From the NCBI GenBank assembly GCA_965203325.1, contig OZ241875.1, positions 1,696,001 to 1,760,000 of the forward strand: a DNA stretch of 64,000 bases, given 5' to 3'. Positions 13,834-22,131 of this stretch are shown one piece after another (position 1 is the first letter of the stretch; each line of letters starts with the position of its first letter). A program made the translations under genes and the position numbers. Source of the DNA: a bacterium (GTDB taxonomy: Bacteria > UBA8248). Below the pieces are notes generated by a model. It searched no databases, was not told the origin of the DNA, and was given only the letters and a program-made list of their open reading frames with translations.

Positions 13834-15083
13834 ATCCCGGTGAGCCGAAAGACCTCTCGGTCCTGGTCCATTACGACGAGATCGGGCTCAAGGGGAAAAA
13901 CCGCCCGCTGTTCATCGAGCGCCTCGCGAAGCGGATCGAACGCGCGGCCTCGTTATTTTGCGAAGCGAAAGTCAGGAAACGCACGGGAAGGCTTGTTCTC
14001 GAAACGAGCGGCCTGGAAGACCCCGACGCTCTGGTAGAGGCCCTCAGGAAAGTATTCGGGGTGGCCTATTTCGCCCGGGCGCAAAGCGTTCCGCTCGACA
14101 TCGAGGCGGCGGCGAAAGTCGCGCTCGAAATGATCGCCCCTCTTAAAACCGAAAGTTTTCGCGTCCGCACCCGGAGATCGTTCCCGGCCACGCCCGTCAG
14201 CACGCGGGAGTGGGACAGGGCCATCGGCGCCGCGATCCAGGCCAGAAGGCACCTGCCGGTCGACCTGGATCGCCCCGGCCTCACGGTGCACGTCGAGGCC
14301 ATCCCGAGGGAAGCCTGGGTGTACGCCGAGAAAATTCCCGGCCCCGGCGGCCTGCCCACAGGCTCGCTCGGGAGGGTGGCGGCGCTCCTCTCGGGCGGCA
14401 TCGACTCCCCCCTGGCCGCCTGGCGGGTCATGAAGCGCGGCTGCGAGGTGGTGTTCATCCATTTTCACGGCGCGCCCTATCTCAGCCGCGCCTCCGCCGA
14501 GAAGGCGAAAGACCTGGCCGGCGTGCTGAACGGCTACCAGCTGGGGAGCAGGCTCTACATGGTGCCGTTCGGCAACCTGCAGAAAGAGATCGTCCTCGCC
14601 ACGCAGCCCGAGTACCGCGTCGTGCTCTACCGCCGGTTCATGGCGCGCATCGGGGAGCGGATAGCCGGGCTCGAGAACGCCCGCGCCCTGGTCACCGGAG
14701 AGAGCCTGGGACAGGTGGCGAGCCAGACGCTGCAGAACCTCGCCGCCATCGAGGACGCGGTGCAGACCCCGATCCTGAGGCCCCTGATCGGCATGGACAA
14801 GGACGAGATCATCGAGGGGGCGAAAGCACTCGGCACGTTCGAGATTTCCATCGAACCCGACCAGGACTGCTGCTCGCTGTTCGTGCCCAAACACCCCGCC
14901 ATCCGCTCGCACGCGGGCCACCTGCGCGGGCTGGAATCGCGCCTGCCCGTCGGGGAGATGATCGAGAAGGTCATCCAGGAGACCGAGATCATCGATTTCG
15001 AAGCGGACGGCCGGACCAGTAATCATTCCTTCGCCGAGATCCATCCCGCTGAAGAGGAAGCGGCCACCGCGCCGAACCCGTAG
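13830..15083 (+). CDS. thiI: tRNA 4-thiouridine synthase ThiI (no rhodanese domain)
   Basis: EIGLKGKNR, THUMP region, LLSGGIDSP PP-loop, TGESLGQVASQT and DCC motifs. Confidence 0.93.
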   Translation: MNPGEPKDLSVLVHYDEIGLKGKNRPLFIERLAKRIERAASLFCEAKVRKRTGRLVLETSGLEDPDALVEALRKVFGVAYFARAQSVPLDIEAAAKVALEMIAPLKTESFRVRTRRSFPATPVSTREWDRAIGAAIQARRHLPVDLDRPGLTVHVEAIPREAWVYAEKIPGPGGLPTGSLGRVAALLSGGIDSPLAAWRVMKRGCEVVFIHFHGAPYLSRASAEKAKDLAGVLNGYQLGSRLYMVPFGNLQKEIVLATQPEYRVVLYRRFMARIGERIAGLENARALVTGESLGQVASQTLQNLAAIEDAVQTPILRPLIGMDKDEIIEGAKALGTFEISIEPDQDCCSLFVPKHPAIRSHAGHLRGLESRLPVGEMIEKVIQETEIIDFEADGRTSNHSFAEIHPAEEEAATAPNP

Positions 15084-15246
15084 GCAATCGGGCGGACACA
15101 CCGGTCCTCGGCCAGGCGCGGCCTCGGACAGGTCACGACCTGTCCGCTACGGGGTATCGCTTCCTCGGTCGGTTCGATTGCCCCTCACTTGTTGAAAGGC
15201 AACCCCCCCTACCCCGAGGAGAATCCTAAATTCACTCCCCCCTTGA

Positions 15247-16764
15247 AGGGCCTGTTGAAAAACCCCTGGTTTTGTGATCGTATGGAGTTATCCCCCCTCG
15301 CCCGAGATGGGAGTTCCCGAGATGATGGGCAGCAGGAGGCGCGAGCAGATGGAATTGTTCGTGGCCGGTTCCATGGAGCAGTTGATTCCCGAAGATCACA
15401 TATTGCGCCAGGTGGACCTCGTGCTGGATTTGAGCTGGCTTCGCGAGGAGGTGGCGGAGTGCTATTGCGCGGACAACGGTCGACCGGGGATCGACCCCGA
15501 GGTGGTGGTTCGGTTGATGCTGGCGGGTTTTCTGCTGGGCTACGCGCAGGACCGCCGCCTGCTGCGCGAGGCGCAGGCGCATCTGGCGATCCGGTGGTTC
15601 ATCGGTTACGAGTTGCACGAGGAGTTGCCGGATCATTCGAGCCTGACGCGTATCCGCCAGCGGTGGGGGGAGGCGCGCTTCAAGGAGATATTCCGGCGCA
15701 CGGTGCGGGCGTGTCTGGACGCGAGGGTGGCGAAGGGAGAAGTGGTTCACATGGACGCTTCGTTGATACGTGCGGACGTGAGCTGGGAGAGTCTGGCGGA
15801 GCGCCACGCGGAGAAGGTGGTGCGGGAGAACGACTCGGAGGATGAGGGCGGGAAGAAGGGCGGCGGCGGGGGTTCGGGTCCTGTGAGCCGAACGGACCCC
15901 GACGCTCGCCTGGCGCGCAAGAGCGCTCGGGCGGGGTTCGAGCCGAGCTACAAGCACCACGCGGTGGTGGACGATGAGCGGGGCGTTGTCCTCGACGTTG
16001 CGGTGACGGAGGGGACGTTGAACGAGCGGGAGATGATGGAGCCGCAGTTGGATGCGGTTTGCGAGCTCACGGGTCGCGCGCCCGCGGTGGTGACGGCGGA
16101 TTCGGGCTATGCGTACTCGAAGGTGTACGGCGCATTGGAGCGTCGGGGGGTGGACGCGGTGATACCGGCGAAGAAGGAGCCTTCCCAGAGCCGGGTGCCG
16201 TTGCAGCTGTTCCGCTACGATGAGCGTCACAAGGTGGTGAAGTGTCCAGGGGGCAAGACGCTGCGCCCCCGGAAGGAGACGGAGCGGGGTCGCTACTATG
16301 TATCGAGGACGCGCGATTGCGCGGGCTGCGCGCTCAGGGCCGATTGTCTGTCGAAGTCCCGCACGAGCCGGACGGTGCTGGTTCCGCATGAGTATCCGGC
16401 GCTGTTGCGCGCGCGCCGTCGCCACGCGCGCCGTGGGGAGGAGGAGGGTCGGCTGTGGCGCCGGCACATGGGTCGCTCCGAAGGCTATCACGGCGAGGCG
16501 AAGAGTTGGCACGGACTGGGGCGGGCGGTGCGCCGGGGTCTGGACAATATGAAGATCCAGGCCTACCTGACGGCGACTGCGGTGAACCTCAAGCGGCTCG
16601 CCGCCGCTGTTGCGGCGCGTTTATTCGCTCTGTGGAGGGCCTGCGCCGCCCGGAAACGCCGAATGAGCGCCTATCGCGGCTTCACGCACCGATTGGGCTT
16701 GATCTCCCAAGCCGCCTGAGCCGCTATTCAGCCCGCACCAAAACGGGGTTTTTCAACAGGCCCC
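15247..16764 (+). mobile_element. IS1182-family insertion sequence
   Basis: 19-bp IRs GGGCCTGTTGAAAAACCCC (15248-15266) and its reverse complement (16745-16763); TTGA duplicated at 15243-46 and 16765-68. Confidence 0.88.
15322..16719 (+). CDS. IS1182-family transposase
   Basis: LIPEDHILRQVD...GRPGIDPE...LPDHSSLTRIRQR, HMDAS, TDPDAR, ADSGY and a Cys-rich insertion. Confidence 0.9.
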   Translation: MMGSRRREQMELFVAGSMEQLIPEDHILRQVDLVLDLSWLREEVAECYCADNGRPGIDPEVVVRLMLAGFLLGYAQDRRLLREAQAHLAIRWFIGYELHEELPDHSSLTRIRQRWGEARFKEIFRRTVRACLDARVAKGEVVHMDASLIRADVSWESLAERHAEKVVRENDSEDEGGKKGGGGGSGPVSRTDPDARLARKSARAGFEPSYKHHAVVDDERGVVLDVAVTEGTLNEREMMEPQLDAVCELTGRAPAVVTADSGYAYSKVYGALERRGVDAVIPAKKEPSQSRVPLQLFRYDERHKVVKCPGGKTLRPRKETERGRYYVSRTRDCAGCALRADCLSKSRTSRTVLVPHEYPALLRARRRHARRGEEEGRLWRRHMGRSEGYHGEAKSWHGLGRAVRRGLDNMKIQAYLTATAVNLKRLAAAVAARLFALWRACAARKRRMSAYRGFTHRLGLISQAA

Positions 16765-16796
16765 TTGAGGGGGGTTATTTCTCATCCGATAAAAAT

Positions 16797-16977
16797 GGAT
16801 CAACTCCCCCCTTGAGGGGGAGTCGAAGAGCTAAGGGCGAAGCCCGCAAGCGATTCGGTGGGGGGACATGCCACGGATAGAAGCTCCCCCCACCACATCG
16901 GCCTTCGCATAAACCGCTCAGCTTCTGTCGGGCTTTCCCCTCGGGAAGCCCGACCCCCTCAAGGGGGGAGTTGATTT
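16797..16977. repeat. ~180-bp MITE-like element with TCAACTCCCCCCTTGAGGGGG inverted ends
   Basis: Terminal inverted repeats; the body matches the reverse complement of the IS256-interrupted copy at ~24017-25567. Confidence 0.8.
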
Positions 16978-16989
16978 CCTCTCTCCTTG

Positions 16990-17226
16990 GGTAGGAGCCC
17001 CGGACAGGTCGCGACCTGTCCCTACAAACCGCAAAATCGCAACGAACCCGTAGGGGCGGCCCCCCGTGGCCGCCCGTATAGAAAACATCCATTCCCGTGG
17101 TTGTCCTTCGTCAGGACAGGCACGGGGGCCTGTCCCTACAGATGCGATTCGGTTTTGTTCGTCATTCCGGGGTTCGGCGGTACATCGAAGGGCCGTCATC
17201 CGCATATTAACCGGCGCAGGGATGAC
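16990..17226. repeat. REP-like hairpin cluster
   Basis: GGACAGGTCGCGACCTGTCCCTAC, GTAGGGGCGGCCCCCCGTGGCCGCCC and GGACAGGCACGGGGGCCTGTCCCTAC units. Confidence 0.8.
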
Positions 17227-17265
17227 GTCGGGGGTCGATTTCGACCGAAACGGCTTTGCTGGAGT

Positions 17266-17464
17266 CCGATAATTGTCGTTATCAGAAAATATAACACCTC
17301 TCACGGCCATGTCAAGCGCAATTCCGGCGTCTCCGGAGGGGTTTCGGGCGCCGTTTTGCGCCTATTTTCGTTTATATTTCGCTCGTTTGCGGCCCCAATG
17401 CGCCCCGAATCGGGTTTTTCGGCGGAAAACGGGGCTTCTGGGGGCCGATAACGACAATTAACGG
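17266..17464. promoter_or_regulatory. Putative invertible promoter segment between inverted recombinase-like sites
   Basis: CCGATAA-TTGTCG-TTATCAG (17266-85) and CCGATAA-CGACAA-TTAACGG (17445-64); internal minus-strand TTGACA-16-TATATT with TGn extension (17288-17315). Confidence 0.6.
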
Positions 17465-17699
17465 CGCCCAGGCCGGGAAAGGTGGGCGTATACCGCAGGA
17501 ATCCGCCTCTCGCGGAAAGACTCACTACCGGCCCGGACGATGAAAGGGTTCAAGTCCGCCGTATTTCAGGCGGCCGAAAATACGAATCACCAGTTTGTGA
17601 AGACCCGAAATGAAAGCTGACGAAAGGAGGTTAATCGGAGAAAGCCGGAAATTCACTGAAAATCCCTTTTTCTACTGTGTATTCAGGAGGACTCACTAA

Positions 17700-19568
17700 A
17701 TGACGTTCAGAGAGAAACCGATAAGCAAGCTTTACGCTTTCGCGCTGGCGGCGGTCTTCGCGCTGACGCTGGCCGGCTGCGGCGGCGGTGGCGGGACGGC
17801 TGCAGTTGAAGAGGAACCGCCCCCGATGCCGACCCCGCAAGAGATGTGCGAGTCTGACGGCGGCCGGTACAATGCGGACGGCACGTGCACCTCGGCTGAA
17901 GACCTGGCTACTGAGCGGGAAGCCAATGCCCTGGCCGCCGCCAAAGCCGCGGCGATGACGGCGTACGAAGCCGCGAAAACGGCGCTGGCCGCCGTCACGG
18001 ACGACGCGAGCCATGACATGGATTCCTACGGCAAGGCCGAAGAAGCCGTGGCCGAAGCGAAGGCGGCGAACGCCGTGGCCCAGGCGGCCACGACCTCCGC
18101 TGCGGCCGAAGACGCCCAGGCGCTCGCCGAGACGGCGCAAGCCAACGCCGAGATGTACGCCGGGATGGTGACGGCAGCGGCAACCAAGGCCGCTGCTCGG
18201 GTGGCGCAAGAGGCGGAGAACAAGGTGGCCGGGACGAAAGGAACGGCCATTGCGGCCGAAGGCACTCAGACGACCGACGCCGGTCTCGGCGGTTCAGATG
18301 CGCCAGCCCCCACAGCCGGGCAGGTTGCAGGCGAATATAACCTAGACATCAAGCATGATGGAGGTCAGGTCGTGACTATCACCATTGAAGGCGCGACCGA
18401 AGATGACAATGAAGTGATCATGGCGAACGACATGGGTATGCACGTTCGCACGCATGATGCGGATGATGACGGCAACGTGATGGAAGAGGTCGTGGTCGTC
18501 AGGACCGACATCGAAGCGCCTAAGGCGGTGGAGTTTGCGAAGTTCGAAGTTATGGCTGCAGACGGAACCGTAACGACGCCTCAAGAGCTGAACGTCAGCA
18601 CCGACACGACCAACGATACTCCTACCGCCACGAATGAAGCTCTGGGAATAGTTGGCGGTAACCTCGGAATGGTCAAGGCCAGCGCGTTCACGGCTCCCGC
18701 CGGAACCGTTGGAACTACCGTCCTTAGTTTCCAGCAGGCGGTAGCAGACGACGCTTCGACAACAGATGTGGATGAAAGCAGGGACGCCGCCGAGCTCGCG
18801 GGCACGTTCAACGGCTCGATGGGAACGTACAAGTGTAACGCTACTGCTGCATGCACAGTTACCGTCAATGCCATGGGTGTCGTAAGCGCCGTTTCGAATG
18901 ACAGTGACTGGGTTTTCATTCCCGCCACAGGCGCAACAACCGACCAGCCGGACTACGACTACTACCACTACGGCTTCTGGCTGAAGAAAACGACGGACGA
19001 AGACGGCGTGCTCACCTACAACGAGGTCGAGACCTTCGCGGGTTCAAGCGTTAACGCGAGCGGCGATGTTGCTACCGTTACGGGAAGCGCGACGTATGAA
19101 GGCGGCGCCGTGGGCGTGTACGTGAAAAACGTGTACAACTCCGACCGCACGCTCGACGTGGCCACCTCCGGCCACTTCACGGCGGACGTCAGCCTGACGG
19201 CGACCTTCGGTCAGGTAAACAATGCTGCCGGTACAGGAACCATCGCGCCGGACAAGCTCAACACCCTCACCGGCACCATCGACAACTTCGCATTGTCCGG
19301 CGGAGAGGATAACGATTGGTCGGTGGCCTTGCAGAGTGACGGTGATCCCAACGCGGCCGGCATCCAGGCCGACAGTGACGGGACCATGGCCGGCACGGCC
19401 AAGGGCGGCGATGGCGACGGCTCGTTCACCGCCATCTACCACGGGAGCCTGACGGCCGCGGCTGATGGAACGATTCCCAAGCCCGGTTCCGTGGTCGGCG
19501 AGTTCAACGCCGGCTTCACGGACGGCACCGTGGCCGGCGCGTTCGGCGCGCGGCGGGTTGACAACTAG
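17700..19568 (+). CDS. Surface lipoprotein with an Ala-rich helical region and a C-terminal TbpB/fHbp-like beta-barrel
   Basis: AGGAGG RBS; lipobox LAGC plus poly-Gly linker; GSATYEGGAVG...FTADVSLTATF...TGTIDNF...VVGEF...VAGAFGARR terminus. Confidence 0.75.
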   Translation: MTFREKPISKLYAFALAAVFALTLAGCGGGGGTAAVEEEPPPMPTPQEMCESDGGRYNADGTCTSAEDLATEREANALAAAKAAAMTAYEAAKTALAAVTDDASHDMDSYGKAEEAVAEAKAANAVAQAATTSAAAEDAQALAETAQANAEMYAGMVTAAATKAAARVAQEAENKVAGTKGTAIAAEGTQTTDAGLGGSDAPAPTAGQVAGEYNLDIKHDGGQVVTITIEGATEDDNEVIMANDMGMHVRTHDADDDGNVMEEVVVVRTDIEAPKAVEFAKFEVMAADGTVTTPQELNVSTDTTNDTPTATNEALGIVGGNLGMVKASAFTAPAGTVGTTVLSFQQAVADDASTTDVDESRDAAELAGTFNGSMGTYKCNATAACTVTVNAMGVVSAVSNDSDWVFIPATGATTDQPDYDYYHYGFWLKKTTDEDGVLTYNEVETFAGSSVNASGDVATVTGSATYEGGAVGVYVKNVYNSDRTLDVATSGHFTADVSLTATFGQVNNAAGTGTIAPDKLNTLTGTIDNFALSGGEDNDWSVALQSDGDPNAAGIQADSDGTMAGTAKGGDGDGSFTAIYHGSLTAAADGTIPKPGSVVGEFNAGFTDGTVAGAFGARRVDN

Positions 19569-19583
19569 AAGTTTGAAGCAGGA

Positions 19584-19806
19584 CGCCTATGGCTTCGGGG
19601 CTTCACGGCCCCGGGGCCCAAGGCGATATGAGGAGAGCGGAAAGGGGGTTGCCCGTTGGTTGCTTCCCTCGTGAGAGCAAACTGTACCGCTCCTGGTTGT
19701 GAGTTTGAGTCCTCGAGCCGGGAGGGGGAACAACGGGCGGCCCCTGTTTTCGCTTCATGAAAGCAGCCGACACCCCGACTCGGCCTGCACCTCGGGGATC
19801 GTGTCG
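19584..19806 (+). ncRNA. Candidate structured RNA or 3' UTR downstream of the lipoprotein gene
   Basis: Three long stems, each with G-U wobbles on the + strand, and a CTC-GTGA-GAG GNRA tetraloop. Confidence 0.4.
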
Positions 19807-19879
19807 CAGCAATTCCCATCTTCAGGGGTTTTTTCAACCCCTTTAAGCAGCCCTTTGCGGGGTGTCGGCCCTTTTTTCC

Positions 19880-20210
19880 TTGAAAGGCAAACCCTCCCTC
19901 ATCGGTCGGGTTTGACCCCCAACCCCCCCTTAACCAGGGGGGTAAAAACAAAAAACCCTCTGAAGCAGTGGGGTACGATGGTTTTGTAGGGGTCGCATAT
20001 ATGCGACCCTGGTTTTTTGCCCTCGACACGGGCCGCATATATGCGGCCCCTACAAAAGGCGTAATCGCCGTAGGGACACGGGCCCCGGACAAGCACAGGG
20101 GCCTGTCCCTACAGAATCGCAACGAACCCGTAGGGGCGCTTCGTGAAGCGCCCGTTTCTCCGGCAAGGGTCGTTCACGAATATGGGCGGTTCGCGAACCG
20201 CCCCTACAGC
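19880..20210. repeat. REP-like hairpin cluster
   Basis: Multiple GTAGGGG.../...CCCCTAC hairpins; ~19920-19990 resembles ~22280-22350. Confidence 0.8.
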
Positions 20211-20262
20211 GGGTGCGGCGTTTGATCGTCATGCCGGCGAAGGCGTCGGCGTTCGTCGAAGC

Positions 20263-22131
20263 CTATTTCGCAGCCGTATCGGACAGGGCATCCGGATCAG
20301 CCGCGTCCCCGCCCCCGCTCTCATGCACGCTCTCCCCGCGATGCAGCCGGCGGGCGATGGTCGCGGTCTGGTACCTGGCGCGCTGGGTCGGGGAATGCGC
20401 GGCGAGAAAGCGGGCCACGGCGATCAGAATGTGACAGCCTTCAGGCTCACCCGCCCACTCGCGGTACTGCTGCACGCCCGCCTCGTACATCTGGAACATG
20501 TGAAAGCTCGCGTCCTCGCGCAGGAGCGCATGGCCGAGCGTCGCGATGATACCTGCGGGGTCGTGGCCCTCGTCCAAATACCGGGCGACCAGCCGCGCCG
20601 CCGGCTGGACCTGCTGCTGGCGGTCCATCACGTCGAGCAGGCCCTGGCGGAGCGCCGCCGCGTCTTCGGGGAGCCGGGCCAGCGCCGCAGGCTCCTCCTC
20701 CGGCAGCCGGGCCGGGGGCACGTTGAGAAAGCGATTCGTGTAGACCGCCATGGCGCCGTGGTACACGCCGCGCACCACGTCGCCCTGGACCTCGGGCGGC
20801 GTCTCGCCCGCCGCGGTGATGCGCTTCAGAACCTGATGCAACGCGTTGGCGTAGGTGAAGGCGTGAAGCGCCGCGTTCCAGTCGGAAAACTCGTTCGAGG
20901 TGCCGAAGCGCGCCACGCGGATAGCCGCCGCATAAGCGAGCGAGCGGGAGAGGTCCGTCGGCCGGGCGCCGGCGGCGACCGCGGCGCCCAAGGCGGCGAT
21001 GATGGGCCCGGCCTCCTCGCCGAGGATGGCCCCGGCCAGCGCGCGGTGATCCCGCCAGACGCCCTTCGCCTCCCCCCCTTTCCTGAAAAGCTTGGGCAAC
21101 TCGGCGAAGGCCGCCTCCAGGAGGGGCACCAGATCGAGCGGGTGGCGCCAGGCGTTCGCCTCCTCCTCGCCGCGCGCCGCCACCATGGTCTTGACCACCG
21201 TGGGCAGGATGGCCTCGGCGTGTCGCCAGCCGATGGTATCGAGGCACTCCATCGCCTTGTTGATGAAATCGAGGCTGTGGCCGCGATCGGCGTAGTAGCG
21301 ATCGGTCTGTGCGGTGATCAGGAGCGCGGCGAGCTCCGCGGGCGTCGCGCCGGCGGCGATCGCGGTGAGCACGGTGCGCTCCGCGCCGTCGCGGTGGCGC
21401 ACCAGGGACCAGTGCCGGAGCCAGTCCCGCAGGGTGTCCGCAGGCGGCGCGGCCCCGGCCAGGGGCTTGCGGTCGCGGCGCGGCATCTCGCCGGCGCAGT
21501 CGCCGGCCACCTCGGAGATGCCCTTGAACAGCGCGAGATAGCGGTCGTCCTCATCGAGGGCCGGCAACACGTTCGCCAGCGCGGCCAGAATCGTCGAACC
21601 GGCGCTCCAGTCGTCGCGGTTCCGCGCGCCGAACAGGAAGGCGTCGGCGAGGATATTGGCGCTCGCAACGGATCGATCGAGCAGGCCGAGCACCGCCTTC
21701 CCGGACACCAGGTCCAGGTCGTGCGCCATGGCGTCGCCGAGCCGCGTGCGCCAATAGTCGCCCTCGTCAGGATAACTGCAATCGGCCGCGACCCAGACCG
21801 CGTCGCCCCGCACCTCGACCCTGGCCCTCGGCACGTCGTCGGCCCACAGATCAAAGGTGCAACCGCTCTCGAGATCGAAGCGGGCGTGATGCCAGTGGCA
21901 GGTGAGGATGCCGTTCTCCACCGACCCCCGGTGGAGCGGGAAGCCGAGATGGGGACAGCGGTTGTCGAGCGCGTGAAGGCGGCCCCCCTCATACACCACG
22001 AGGATGGGATGGCGCCGGCCGCTCACCACTTTCATGCGCTCCCGCTTGAGCTCATCAAGTGCGCCGACACGAATGAAATCGCCCGCCCTTATCGACTTGC
22101 GGCGGGATTCCGGCTTGCGTTCCGTCATCAT
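20263..22131 (-). CDS. Rieske [2Fe-2S] domain protein with a large helical C-terminal region
   Basis: NRCPHLG...TCHWHHARF Rieske motif in the N-terminal ~110 aa. Confidence 0.85.
   Translation of the reverse strand: MMTERKPESRRKSIRAGDFIRVGALDELKRERMKVVSGRRHPILVVYEGGRLHALDNRCPHLGFPLHRGSVENGILTCHWHHARFDLESGCTFDLWADDVPRARVEVRGDAVWVAADCSYPDEGDYWRTRLGDAMAHDLDLVSGKAVLGLLDRSVASANILADAFLFGARNRDDWSAGSTILAALANVLPALDEDDRYLALFKGISEVAGDCAGEMPRRDRKPLAGAAPPADTLRDWLRHWSLVRHRDGAERTVLTAIAAGATPAELAALLITAQTDRYYADRGHSLDFINKAMECLDTIGWRHAEAILPTVVKTMVAARGEEEANAWRHPLDLVPLLEAAFAELPKLFRKGGEAKGVWRDHRALAGAILGEEAGPIIAALGAAVAAGARPTDLSRSLAYAAAIRVARFGTSNEFSDWNAALHAFTYANALHQVLKRITAAGETPPEVQGDVVRGVYHGAMAVYTNRFLNVPPARLPEEEPAALARLPEDAAALRQGLLDVMDRQQQVQPAARLVARYLDEGHDPAGIIATLGHALLREDASFHMFQMYEAGVQQYREWAGEPEGCHILIAVARFLAAHSPTQRARYQTATIARRLHRGESVHESGGGDAADPDALSDTAAK

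Follow-up and report, generated by a model that had tools for sequence, protein, structure and literature searches.

In gut bacteria and in pathogens, promoter-inversion phase variation is well established, and the invertible promoter (inverton) is an already known kind of switch. In fimS, which governs type 1 fimbriae of E. coli, a short invertible segment carries the promoter for the surface structure, the genes for FimB and FimE adjoin it, and recombinase expression is tied to orientation; FimB and FimE are proteins of about 200 amino acids that act at 9-bp repeats and need IHF/Lrp. Invertible promoters of Bacteroides are reportedly turned by local tyrosine recombinases (Tsr; Weinacht et al. 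2004) or by the global serine invertase Mpi, and we know of no description of spacer-coded sites in those systems. Mycoplasma varies its Vsa, Vsp and Vpma surface-lipoprotein families through Xer-like site-specific tyrosine recombination. Cre/loxP of phage P1 resolves plasmid dimers, and heterospecific lox variants, whose centres differ, should not recombine with one another.

We analysed a stretch of 64,000 nucleotides of bacterial DNA (the window) and found at 17259–17471 what is very probably an invertible promoter cassette served by a Cre-like recombinase, with its lipoprotein gene at present off. The system resembles Cre/loxP and Dre/rox (phage D6) in that the closest solved relative of its recombinase is Cre and the nearest phage genes are dre and cre. 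The sites are also built like loxP, with 34 bp, two arms of about 13–14 bp and an asymmetric centre of 6–8 bp whose direction sets the outcome. Unlike Cre/loxP, it is chromosomal, multi-copy and promoter-flipping, its recombinase gene is a neighbour of the segment rather than part of it, recombinase identity to Cre is only about 30%, and site L has one degenerate arm, which overlaps the promoter. With fimS it shares a short promoter-bearing invertible segment, a neighbouring tyrosine recombinase and a putative link between recombinase expression and orientation, whereas fimS is a single locus and the present family has 16 copies with locus-specific spacers. Bacteroides likewise has many invertible promoters per genome, serving outer-surface proteins in a host-associated organism and some with a neighbouring tyrosine recombinase, but phylum and habitat differ (here a sponge-associated uncultured lineage), and this genome, which is 95% complete, has no match to the serine recombinase family PF00239. 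The Mycoplasma systems also vary surface lipoproteins through site-specific tyrosine recombination, but there silent genes move to a fixed promoter, whereas here each gene owns a flipping one. Full-text literature searches returned no report of promoter-inversion phase variation in sponge symbionts and no publication on this system; in the DeepInverton survey, 'sponge' and 'Nitrospin' have 0 occurrences (PMC11602134).

Two lox-like sites around a putative promoter

The features of the locus are as follows (positions in the window).

15274–16719, + strand: IS transposase (DUF772 + DDE), inserted to the left of the switch, with palindromic repeats after it at about 16750–17160
17259–17292, no strand: site L, a lox-like recombination site of outer arm, spacer and degenerate inner arm, in register with 38 other copies
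17259–17272: site L outer arm CTGGAGTCCGATAA, nearly invariant across the 16 copies of this genome
17273–17278: site L spacer TTGTCG
17279–17292: site L inner arm TTATCAGAAAATAT, degenerate, overlapping the -10 region
17288–17315, - strand: putative sigma-70-type promoter (TTGACA 17315–17310, 16-nt spacer ending TGT, TATATT 17293–17288), reading leftward through site L
17293–17437, no strand: body of the invertible segment between the sites, about 145 bp
17346–17373, + strand: tentative terminator-like hairpin and T-run, behind the promoter on the opposite strand
17438–17471, no strand: site R, a lox-like site forming a near-perfect 14-6-14 palindrome
17438–17451: site R inner arm CTGGGGGCCGATAA
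17452–17457: site R spacer CGACAA, which reverse-complements that of site L
17458–17471: site R outer arm TTAACGGCGCCCAG, of the type found in other lipoprotein modules, the flipped one included
17472–17699, + strand: leader of about 230 nt from site R to the start codon, with Shine-Dalgarno AGGAGG at 17685–17690, common to the seven lipoprotein modules
17700–19568, + strand: cargo gene for a 622-aa lipoprotein with signal peptide and lipobox L-A-G-C (Cys27, nt 17769–17780)

A sequence-only reading of this stretch had described a perfect 14-bp inverted repeat, and its coordinates are all correct: TAATTGTCGTTATC lies at 17270–17283 and its exact reverse complement at 17447–17460. The 14-mer stands, but the inverted repeat is longer than had been described, with 25-nt arms (17259–17283 and 17447–17471) that are 84% identical and separated by 163 nt. 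The 7-6-7 layout proposed for each site has to be replaced, since both are 34-bp, lox-like sites, mutually inverted, in which arms of about 14 bp flank an asymmetric 6-bp spacer. That the two spacers are identical but inverted was read correctly. The GATAA-N6-TTATC palindrome pattern alone is not significant (2 matches vs. 0.59 expected; 10 of 100 shuffles reach 2). An inverted repeat matching at 15 or more of 16 positions, 100–400 bp apart, arose in none of 370 shuffled 1.1-kb controls, and the full feature, a unit that recurs as a whole 16 times in the genome, is far beyond chance.

The near-consensus minus-strand promoter motif that had been placed between the sites is present, matching the consensus at 11 of 12 positions together with the TG, and is directed away from the lipoprotein gene. 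A promoter scan returned two promoter-like sites (0.7 ± 0.7 in shuffles), and none on the + strand anywhere in 16700–19900. In the present orientation the hairpin might, tentatively, block rightward read-through into the lipoprotein gene; it recurs in two paralogs, and more distant species show no clear conservation of its stem. An Rfam search over 15000–21000, leader included, gave no family match and three sub-threshold miRNA chance matches only. On the left, three relatives lack the IS insertion at their syntenic loci. Other small palindromic repeats and IS elements abound in the genome.

The lipobox of the cargo protein (...ALTLAGC with Cys27) was read directly from the sequence, and the paralogs have the same N-terminus. 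An Ala-rich helical region is followed by an all-beta C-terminal domain common to the paralogs. This C-terminal part resembles TbpB_B_D/fHbp-type clusters by language-model features alone (Atlas score 0.93), and the corresponding Pfam match (PF01298) is weak, with an E-value of 0.01 in 1 of 10 paralogs. The window lipoprotein itself matched no Pfam family, a profile search against PDB sequences gave 0 matches, and AF2 models were poor (pLDDT 35 from the single sequence, 41 from a 10-paralog alignment).

A family of switches and its orientations

Scanning the genome and its relatives with the 163-bp unit between the repeats (17284–17446) recovered 16 copies in the genome itself (88–100% identical, with conserved flanks) and 27 matches in loci of relatives, 23 of them distinct; together these make 39 distinct copies, which we compared. 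The family of switches for paralogous lipoproteins that had been suspected was found in seven lipoprotein modules, and nine further modules, out of view from the window, precede large cadherin/fn3/Calx-beta proteins. Homology runs well past the repeats both ways, on the recombinase side and through the leader and gene start, the leader homology reaching query position 501 in six other copies. TTGACA is present in all 39 copies, the promoter spacer ends in TGT in 36, the -10 hexamer is TATATT in 20, and AACACCTCTCA occurs in 34. Several paralogs have a weak -10 hexamer, and the promoter scan missed the promoter in one paralog (L014).

At each copy we compared the 6 nt between TAA and TTA of the two sites. 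Left and right spacers are exact reverse complements of each other in 38 of 39 copies (15/16 own, 23/23 from relatives), with 17 different spacers represented while the arms stay conserved; dealing out the right spacers at random gave a mean of 2.9 matches and a maximum of 11 of 38. The two sites carry mismatched spacers in the own copy at genome position 3371544.

Three of the 16 own copies (genome positions 2078046, 2672553 and 3869539) are flipped, with both flanks swapped and reverse-complemented. Flipped copies also occur in relatives (L034, L035/L047 and L055), and the genome that holds L055 has an unflipped paralog (L062). Had large inversions between two modules produced the flipped copies, one module would carry a pair of like flanks, which was not seen. 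In a flipped lipoprotein copy (L019) the same promoter, again with 11 of 12 matches, is directed at the lipoprotein gene, in agreement with the earlier proposal that the window's lipoprotein is currently off. The junctions predicted for its on state are formally correct, and a flipped paralog displays that form. One orthologous lipoprotein switch differs between this genome and a sister species (G012) by inversion of a 206-nt block between colinear flanks, with junctions of the predicted form and a compensating spacer change (TTGCTG/CAGCAA vs. TTGCTA/TAGCAA); neither of the two 5-kb stretches compared holds a recombinase homolog. Another G012 copy (L025/L116) was ruled out as the ortholog of the window copy on account of missing synteny. 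At the level of the family an invertible promoter, as had been proposed, is supported by paralogs and an orthologous pair in both orientations and by covarying spacers, and we regard the family as a genuine inverton system with high confidence.

The window's own locus lies in a single orientation, 'off', in four of four assemblies (this genome, G010, G011 and G016). A single orientation throughout had been named as grounds for rejecting the switch; the family shows both orientations, while the window locus does show one. The Logan contigs compared with the locus are pieces of 90–200 nt that break across the repeats and are mixed with paralogs, and no piece spans a site. Scanning metagenomes for the predicted left on-junction of this locus gave nine matches, all of them unrelated chance sequences that share no homology with the window.

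The uniform orientation and the lack of a genuine on-junction in the metagenome scan are what would be expected if the family were real and the window copy a locked relic whose recombinase was long ago lost, leaving the lipoprotein silent or on another, unrecognised promoter. It also fits this explanation that no recombinase gene lies to the left of the window switch and that neither it nor its three syntenic orthologs retains a cis recombinase or a remnant of one, the alignments found there being chance matches of 10–25 residues with E > 1. Nevertheless, we consider a relic improbable. The three orthologs keep both sites and TTGTCG/CGACAA, so that four species have the same intact sites and spacers despite segment identity of only 77–82%; the window arms are the same as those of recombinase-linked copies; the switch inverted between the sister species likewise lacks a recombinase; and an assembly displays the majority orientation only. 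It is likely, in our judgement, that the window copy still flips.

A MITE-like element, with terminal repeats and 16 insertions in either orientation but no site-specific inversion, would also be a multi-copy, short, non-coding unit bounded by inverted repeats, in a genome as full of such small repeats as this one. It is very improbable: homology continues beyond the repeats on both sides, flipped copies retain the same two flanks in exchanged positions, the orthologous pair differs by inversion alone, and transposon ends should be conserved, whereas here the centre varies between copies and is complementary within each. Hardly credible at all is a pair of operator sites whose palindromes bind a Fur-like or other dimeric repressor of the lipoprotein, for although the arms look like the GATAAT/ATTATC words found in Fur boxes and the C-terminal domain of the cargo, with its weak TbpB_B_D-like signal, faintly resembles transferrin-binding proteins, a repressor leaves flank exchange, the left/right covariation of a copy-variable spacer and the adjacent recombinase genes unexplained, and the same sites precede nine adhesin-like genes.

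Cre-like recombinases and a proposed network

Returning to the invertible promoter, we listed the tyrosine recombinases of the genome, which has 38 PF00589 matches, none of them inside the window. Six copies of the switch have an adjacent intact one, about 70 nt from site L, and these six are mutually 77–96% identical. Their closest solved structure is Cre (E = 1.8e-14; recombinase residues 91–343 on Cre 66–338), the best PDB XerC-like chain reaching 4e-6. The segments LLRVSE, RRSKTD, GHSLRVG, GRWQS and GRYAQ, conserved in all six copies, align with the corresponding Cre motifs, and their positions correspond, by Cre residue numbering, to the Arg-Lys-His-Arg-Trp-Tyr set of Cre; the Cre-type Trp is matched where most relatives have His. 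The nearest phage relatives, at about 31% identity, are annotated dre and cre. Scores against the XerC and XerD equivalogs were 42 and 31 bits (cut-offs 335 and 330), and those against the NCBIfam 'tyrosine-type DNA invertase' models 17–19 bits (cut-offs 221–222). The Xer/dif-type recombinase of the sequence-only reading thus gives way to a Cre/Dre-like enzyme, as judged by structure, model scores and phage relatives.

A Cre-like tyrosine recombinase would bind the arms, pair the two sites and exchange strands within the spacer; exchange would need matching spacers, and its outcome would be a flip of the segment. In the assembled orientation the promoter would fire left into repeats and the IS, leaving the gene at 17700 off, and once inverted it would drive transcription across site R and the 230-nt leader into the lipoprotein gene. 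Since there is no recombinase nearby, the window copy must, if it flips, be flipped in trans, presumably by the six intact recombinases beside paralogous cassettes. Switching in trans had been anticipated, and the flipped paralog that itself has no recombinase agrees with it. The claim that the leftward promoter meets no gene holds for the window copy, but most family members, in the off orientation, aim theirs at a recombinase gene. In complete modules, one promoter may alternate, facing the recombinase gene while the segment lies one way and the gene for the surface protein while it lies the other way. The locus-specific spacers, of which there are 17 kinds, might be addresses that prevent recombination between one of the 16 cassettes and another, an address code that would not be absolute, as up to four own copies have one spacer in common. 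We infer promoter activity, the transcription start, action in trans and the address function from these patterns.

Taken further, and only tentatively, the cassettes may form a network of lox-like promoter switches, at least 16 in number and each addressable independently, all driven in trans by a small pool of Cre-like enzymes. The spacers would be natural heterospecific lox addresses that allow local flips and prevent scrambling of the chromosome, and the promoter would alternate between recombinase and surface protein. If so, enzyme supply would be coupled to how many switches are off, and lipoproteins and cadherin/fn3-type adhesins would vary combinatorially in a sponge symbiont. On this tentative reading the module would seem to have passed from one symbiont phylum to another. 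Through the switches this uncultured sponge-associated bacterium probably varies its surface. If the switches are real, the lipoproteins and eukaryote-like adhesins of bacteria living in an early-branching animal would vary stochastically, which would bear on escape from phagocytosis, host recognition or phages. Spacer-coded sites would be the natural counterpart of engineered orthogonal lox variants and could be a source of new recombinase/site pairs that exclude one another. A directly testable regulatory question also follows from the design, namely how one promoter serves a recombinase gene and a cargo gene in alternation.

A neighbouring HTH_17 gene was considered as an accessory factor and set aside as no core part; it occurs only in this genome and in G012, at 93–100% identity, and looks like a young passenger. 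Distant relatives of the recombinase in other labelled phyla accompany unrelated segments that are bounded by inverted repeats and have TTGACA at one end.

Sites and predicted promoter of the proposed switch

The window (positions 1696001-1760000 of contig C1 in its own genome, G000, and lying within one 4.39-Mb contig) carries the 14-bp inverted repeat noted by the sequence-only reading: TAATTGTCGTTATC occupies 17270-17283, and 17447-17460 holds the same 14 bases in exact reverse complement. A repeat finder extended it to 25 nt at 84% identity (17259-17283/17447-17471; 163 nt between the arms). By itself, a loose palindrome pattern did not reach significance in the window, where it matched twice vs. 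0.59 expected and 10/100 shuffles reached 2. An inverted repeat of at least 15/16, spaced 100-400 bp apart, occurred in 0/370 shuffled 1.1-kb controls, and the full repeat feature of the window is beyond chance. Alignment of all copies of the switch resolved the two sites as lox-like units of 34 bp each:

Sites of the window switch, from the copy alignment
17259-17292, site L: CTGGAGTCCGATAA / TTGTCG / TTATCAGAAAATAT
17438-17471, site R: CTGGGGGCCGATAA / CGACAA / TTAACGGCGCCCAG, a near-perfect 14-6-14 palindrome

Of the inner arm of site L, TTATC(A/G)G is all that is retained, and this arm overlaps the -10 element of a putative minus-strand promoter, which a promoter scan recovered as had been proposed (TTGACA, 16 nt, TGn-TATATT, 17315..17288; 11/12 matches); the scan returned no plus-strand promoter-like site in 16700-19900. 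When we compared 39 distinct copies (16 from the own genome, 23 from loci of relatives), TTGACA occurred in 39/39, a 16-nt spacer with TGT as its last bases followed in 36/39, and 20/39 had TATATT as the -10. Behind the promoter, on the other strand, lies a terminator-like hairpin with a T-run, the stem of which is not clearly conserved among more distant species; judged from sequence, the cassette may act as an insulated one-way promoter. Two further elements are conserved beyond promoter needs, namely the block AACACCTCTCA between -10 and -35 (17293-17303; 34/39 copies) and the near-palindrome CCGGSGTCYCCGG upstream of -35 (about 17324-17336), and these may form a site for an accessory protein.

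Copies, orientations and matched centres

The 163-bp segment (17284-17446) has 16 copies in the own genome that are 88-100% identical, with homology continuing beyond the repeats on both sides. Seven of them, including that of the window, precede lipoprotein paralogs with the common N-terminus ...LAGCGGGGG, which bears out the earlier suggestion of a family of switches before paralogous lipoproteins; the other 9 are upstream of proteins of 1000-1450 aa with Cadherin-like, fn3, and Calx-beta domains. Behind the copy at genome position 1411880 (locus L013) the lipoprotein frame is split into two ORFs (316 + 280 aa), which may be a frameshift or a pseudogene, and the copies at 1827423 (L014) and 2585550 (L018) are each followed by two tandem lipoprotein paralogs.

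The promoter faces the recombinase side in 13/16 own copies and in 14/16 recombinase-linked copies of relatives. In the remaining 3 own copies (genome 2078046, 2672553, and 3869539) the two flanks have traded places and are reverse-complemented compared with those 13, and such exchange is likewise seen at L034, L035/L047, and L055 in relatives, while L062, a paralog of L055 in the same genome, is unflipped. At the flipped lipoprotein copy L019, the same 11/12 promoter points at an 890-aa lipoprotein gene; the candidate promoter would serve either the recombinase or the cargo, depending on the state. The cleanest inversion was found at an orthologous locus behind an EamA-like gene (99% identical between the own genome and the sister species G012), where an inverted block of 206 nt lies between colinear flanks. 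The junctions in the own genome read L outer arm, spacer, and R inner arm in reverse complement, which is the junction form that the sequence-only reading had predicted. The spacers of this pair differ by compensating changes (TTGCTG/CAGCAA in the own genome; TTGCTA/TAGCAA in G012). Since neither of the two 5-kb stretches compared contains a recombinase homolog (tblastn, E ≤ 1), this inversion indicates that a lipoprotein switch of the window's type, and without a recombinase, has flipped.

The arms are conserved and the 6-bp centres vary, with 17 different centres in the 39 copies, and in 38/39 the left and right centres are exact reverse complements of each other; the sole exception (genome 3371544) differs at a single edge position. 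When the right centres were re-paired at random, the mean was 2.9 matches and the maximum 11/38. Cre, Flp, and lambda Int are established to require identical overlap regions in both partners, and matched centres are the pattern expected from a tyrosine recombinase with this requirement. The spacer TTGACG is common to four own switches (705724, 2078046, 3869539, and 4230865), two of which belong to the three flipped copies.

A Cre-like recombinase

The own genome (completeness 95%) has 38 PF00589 matches and no PF00239 match. None of the 38 falls inside the window, in keeping with the absence of a recombinase reported there. Six PF00589 genes, intact and 77-96% mutually identical, are found next to switch copies, ~70 nt away from site L and on the strand opposite to the cargo; the remaining copies have truncated recombinase remnants (at least 1995950, 2556944, and 4230865) or none. 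The nearest solved structure to the switch recombinase is Cre (7rhz_B; E 1.8e-14; query 91-343 on Cre 66-338), followed by an XerC-like chain (E 4e-6), and the catalytic motifs all align with Cre, including a Trp at the Cre-type position. In a phage collection the nearest annotated genes were dre of phage D6 and cre of P7 (~31% identity). An identity as XerC, XerD, or a FimB/E-type invertase was rejected, as all NCBIfam models score far below their cut-offs; the family is Cre-like instead of the Xer type first proposed.

Many PF00589 genes of the own genome occur as adjacent pairs (e.g., C1:972327+973516, 737617+738806, 3831553+3832740, and 2554265+2555446), possibly recombinase-in-trio type elements, and the switch copy at 2556944 has one such pair directly to its left. 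A gene encoding 239 aa, with an HTH_17/excisionase-like domain at the C-terminus (L014:2638-3357, plus strand; 11 or more further places in the own genome), is convergent with the switch recombinases, is present only in the own genome and G012, and at some copies occupies the place of the missing 3' part of the recombinase. Its copies are 93-100% identical, closer to each other than the recombinases are, and it looks like a young mobile passenger.

Interpretation, the window locus and distribution

The observation is confirmed, and the occurrence of both orientations and the spacer covariation support its reading as an invertible promoter at the level of the family. We hold with high confidence that the family constitutes a genuine inverton system, and a Cre/lox-like promoter inverton is a probable overall explanation of the window feature together with its family. 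The window copy is a candidate for one that is still active, which we consider fairly likely; that this copy itself is a locked fossil is improbable. It is syntenic with loci in the related species G010, G011, and G016, in the order polyprenyl synthase, 125-aa ORF, ThiI, repeats, switch, lipoprotein, and Rieske protein. At all four loci the promoter faces ThiI, no recombinase or remnant is found between ThiI and the switch, and both sites with the spacer TTGTCG/CGACAA are kept, though the segment is only 77-82% identical. One metagenome scan did not find the ON junction of the window locus. Peculiar to the own genome, and missing from the syntenic loci of the three relatives, is one insertion:

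15274-16719: DDE transposase (DUF772, DDE_Tnp_1_6, DDE_Tnp_1), inserted between ThiI and the switch

Small palindromic repeats are dense at ~16750-17160, where CCCCTTGAGGGGG is one of the cores and a 22-nt perfect inverted pair occurs (16799-16820/16954-16975); similar repeats are suspected further right, and repeats of these kinds also occupy the space between ThiI and the switch in the relatives.

Taking the feature for a MITE leaves unexplained both the conserved, exchanged flanks and the centres, which differ from copy to copy but agree inside any one copy. Fur-like operators would account for neither flank exchange nor spacer covariation, nor for the adjacent recombinases and adhesin modules, and an RNA stem leaves the flank exchange unexplained. 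The promoter inverton resembles fimS and the Bacteroides invertible promoters in function and Cre/lox in enzyme and site geometry; membership in the Xer, FimB/E, or serine-invertase families was rejected (NCBIfam scores, Cre match, PF00239 absence). Its copy number, its locus-specific spacers, the promoter that recombinase and cargo would share, and its host, a sponge-associated uncultured lineage, are unusual. A full-text literature search found no description of such a system, and the available part of the DeepInverton paper contains 'sponge' and 'Nitrospin' 0 times.

The window lipoprotein (622 aa; lipobox with Cys27) matched no Pfam family, and the 268 aa at its C-terminus are conserved in the paralogs. 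Evidence for a possible TbpB/fHbp-type barrel is confined to a feature score of 0.93 and a single Pfam match (E 0.01) in 1 of 10 paralogs, and structure models of the cargo were too poor for use. The lipoproteins at the window locus and at the relatives' loci L117, L118, and L119 are 35-55% identical vs. 92-97% for neighbouring genes, a divergence of the kind that diversifying pressure on a surface protein would typically produce.

Of 22 further genomes in the genus, 12 contain switch DNA (from 1 up to 17 or more copies per genome), and recombinase relatives occur in 472 stretches of genome_contigs. Among 80 of these, MAG labels were Nitrospinota (closest), Tectimicrobiota/Entotheonella, Binatia, Acidobacteriota, Latescibacterota, Poribacteria, and others. 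An inverted repeat (at least 15/16, 100-400 bp apart, ≤1 kb upstream of the recombinase) was found at 21/74 scanned loci, 19 of them with TTGACA near one repeat end; the other 53 had none at this threshold. Loci of other labelled groups (L046, L050, L079/80/82, and L091) have unrelated segments in the same layout. In a habitat check of three runs, X3 was a sponge metagenome, and X1 and X2 were from coded organism A.
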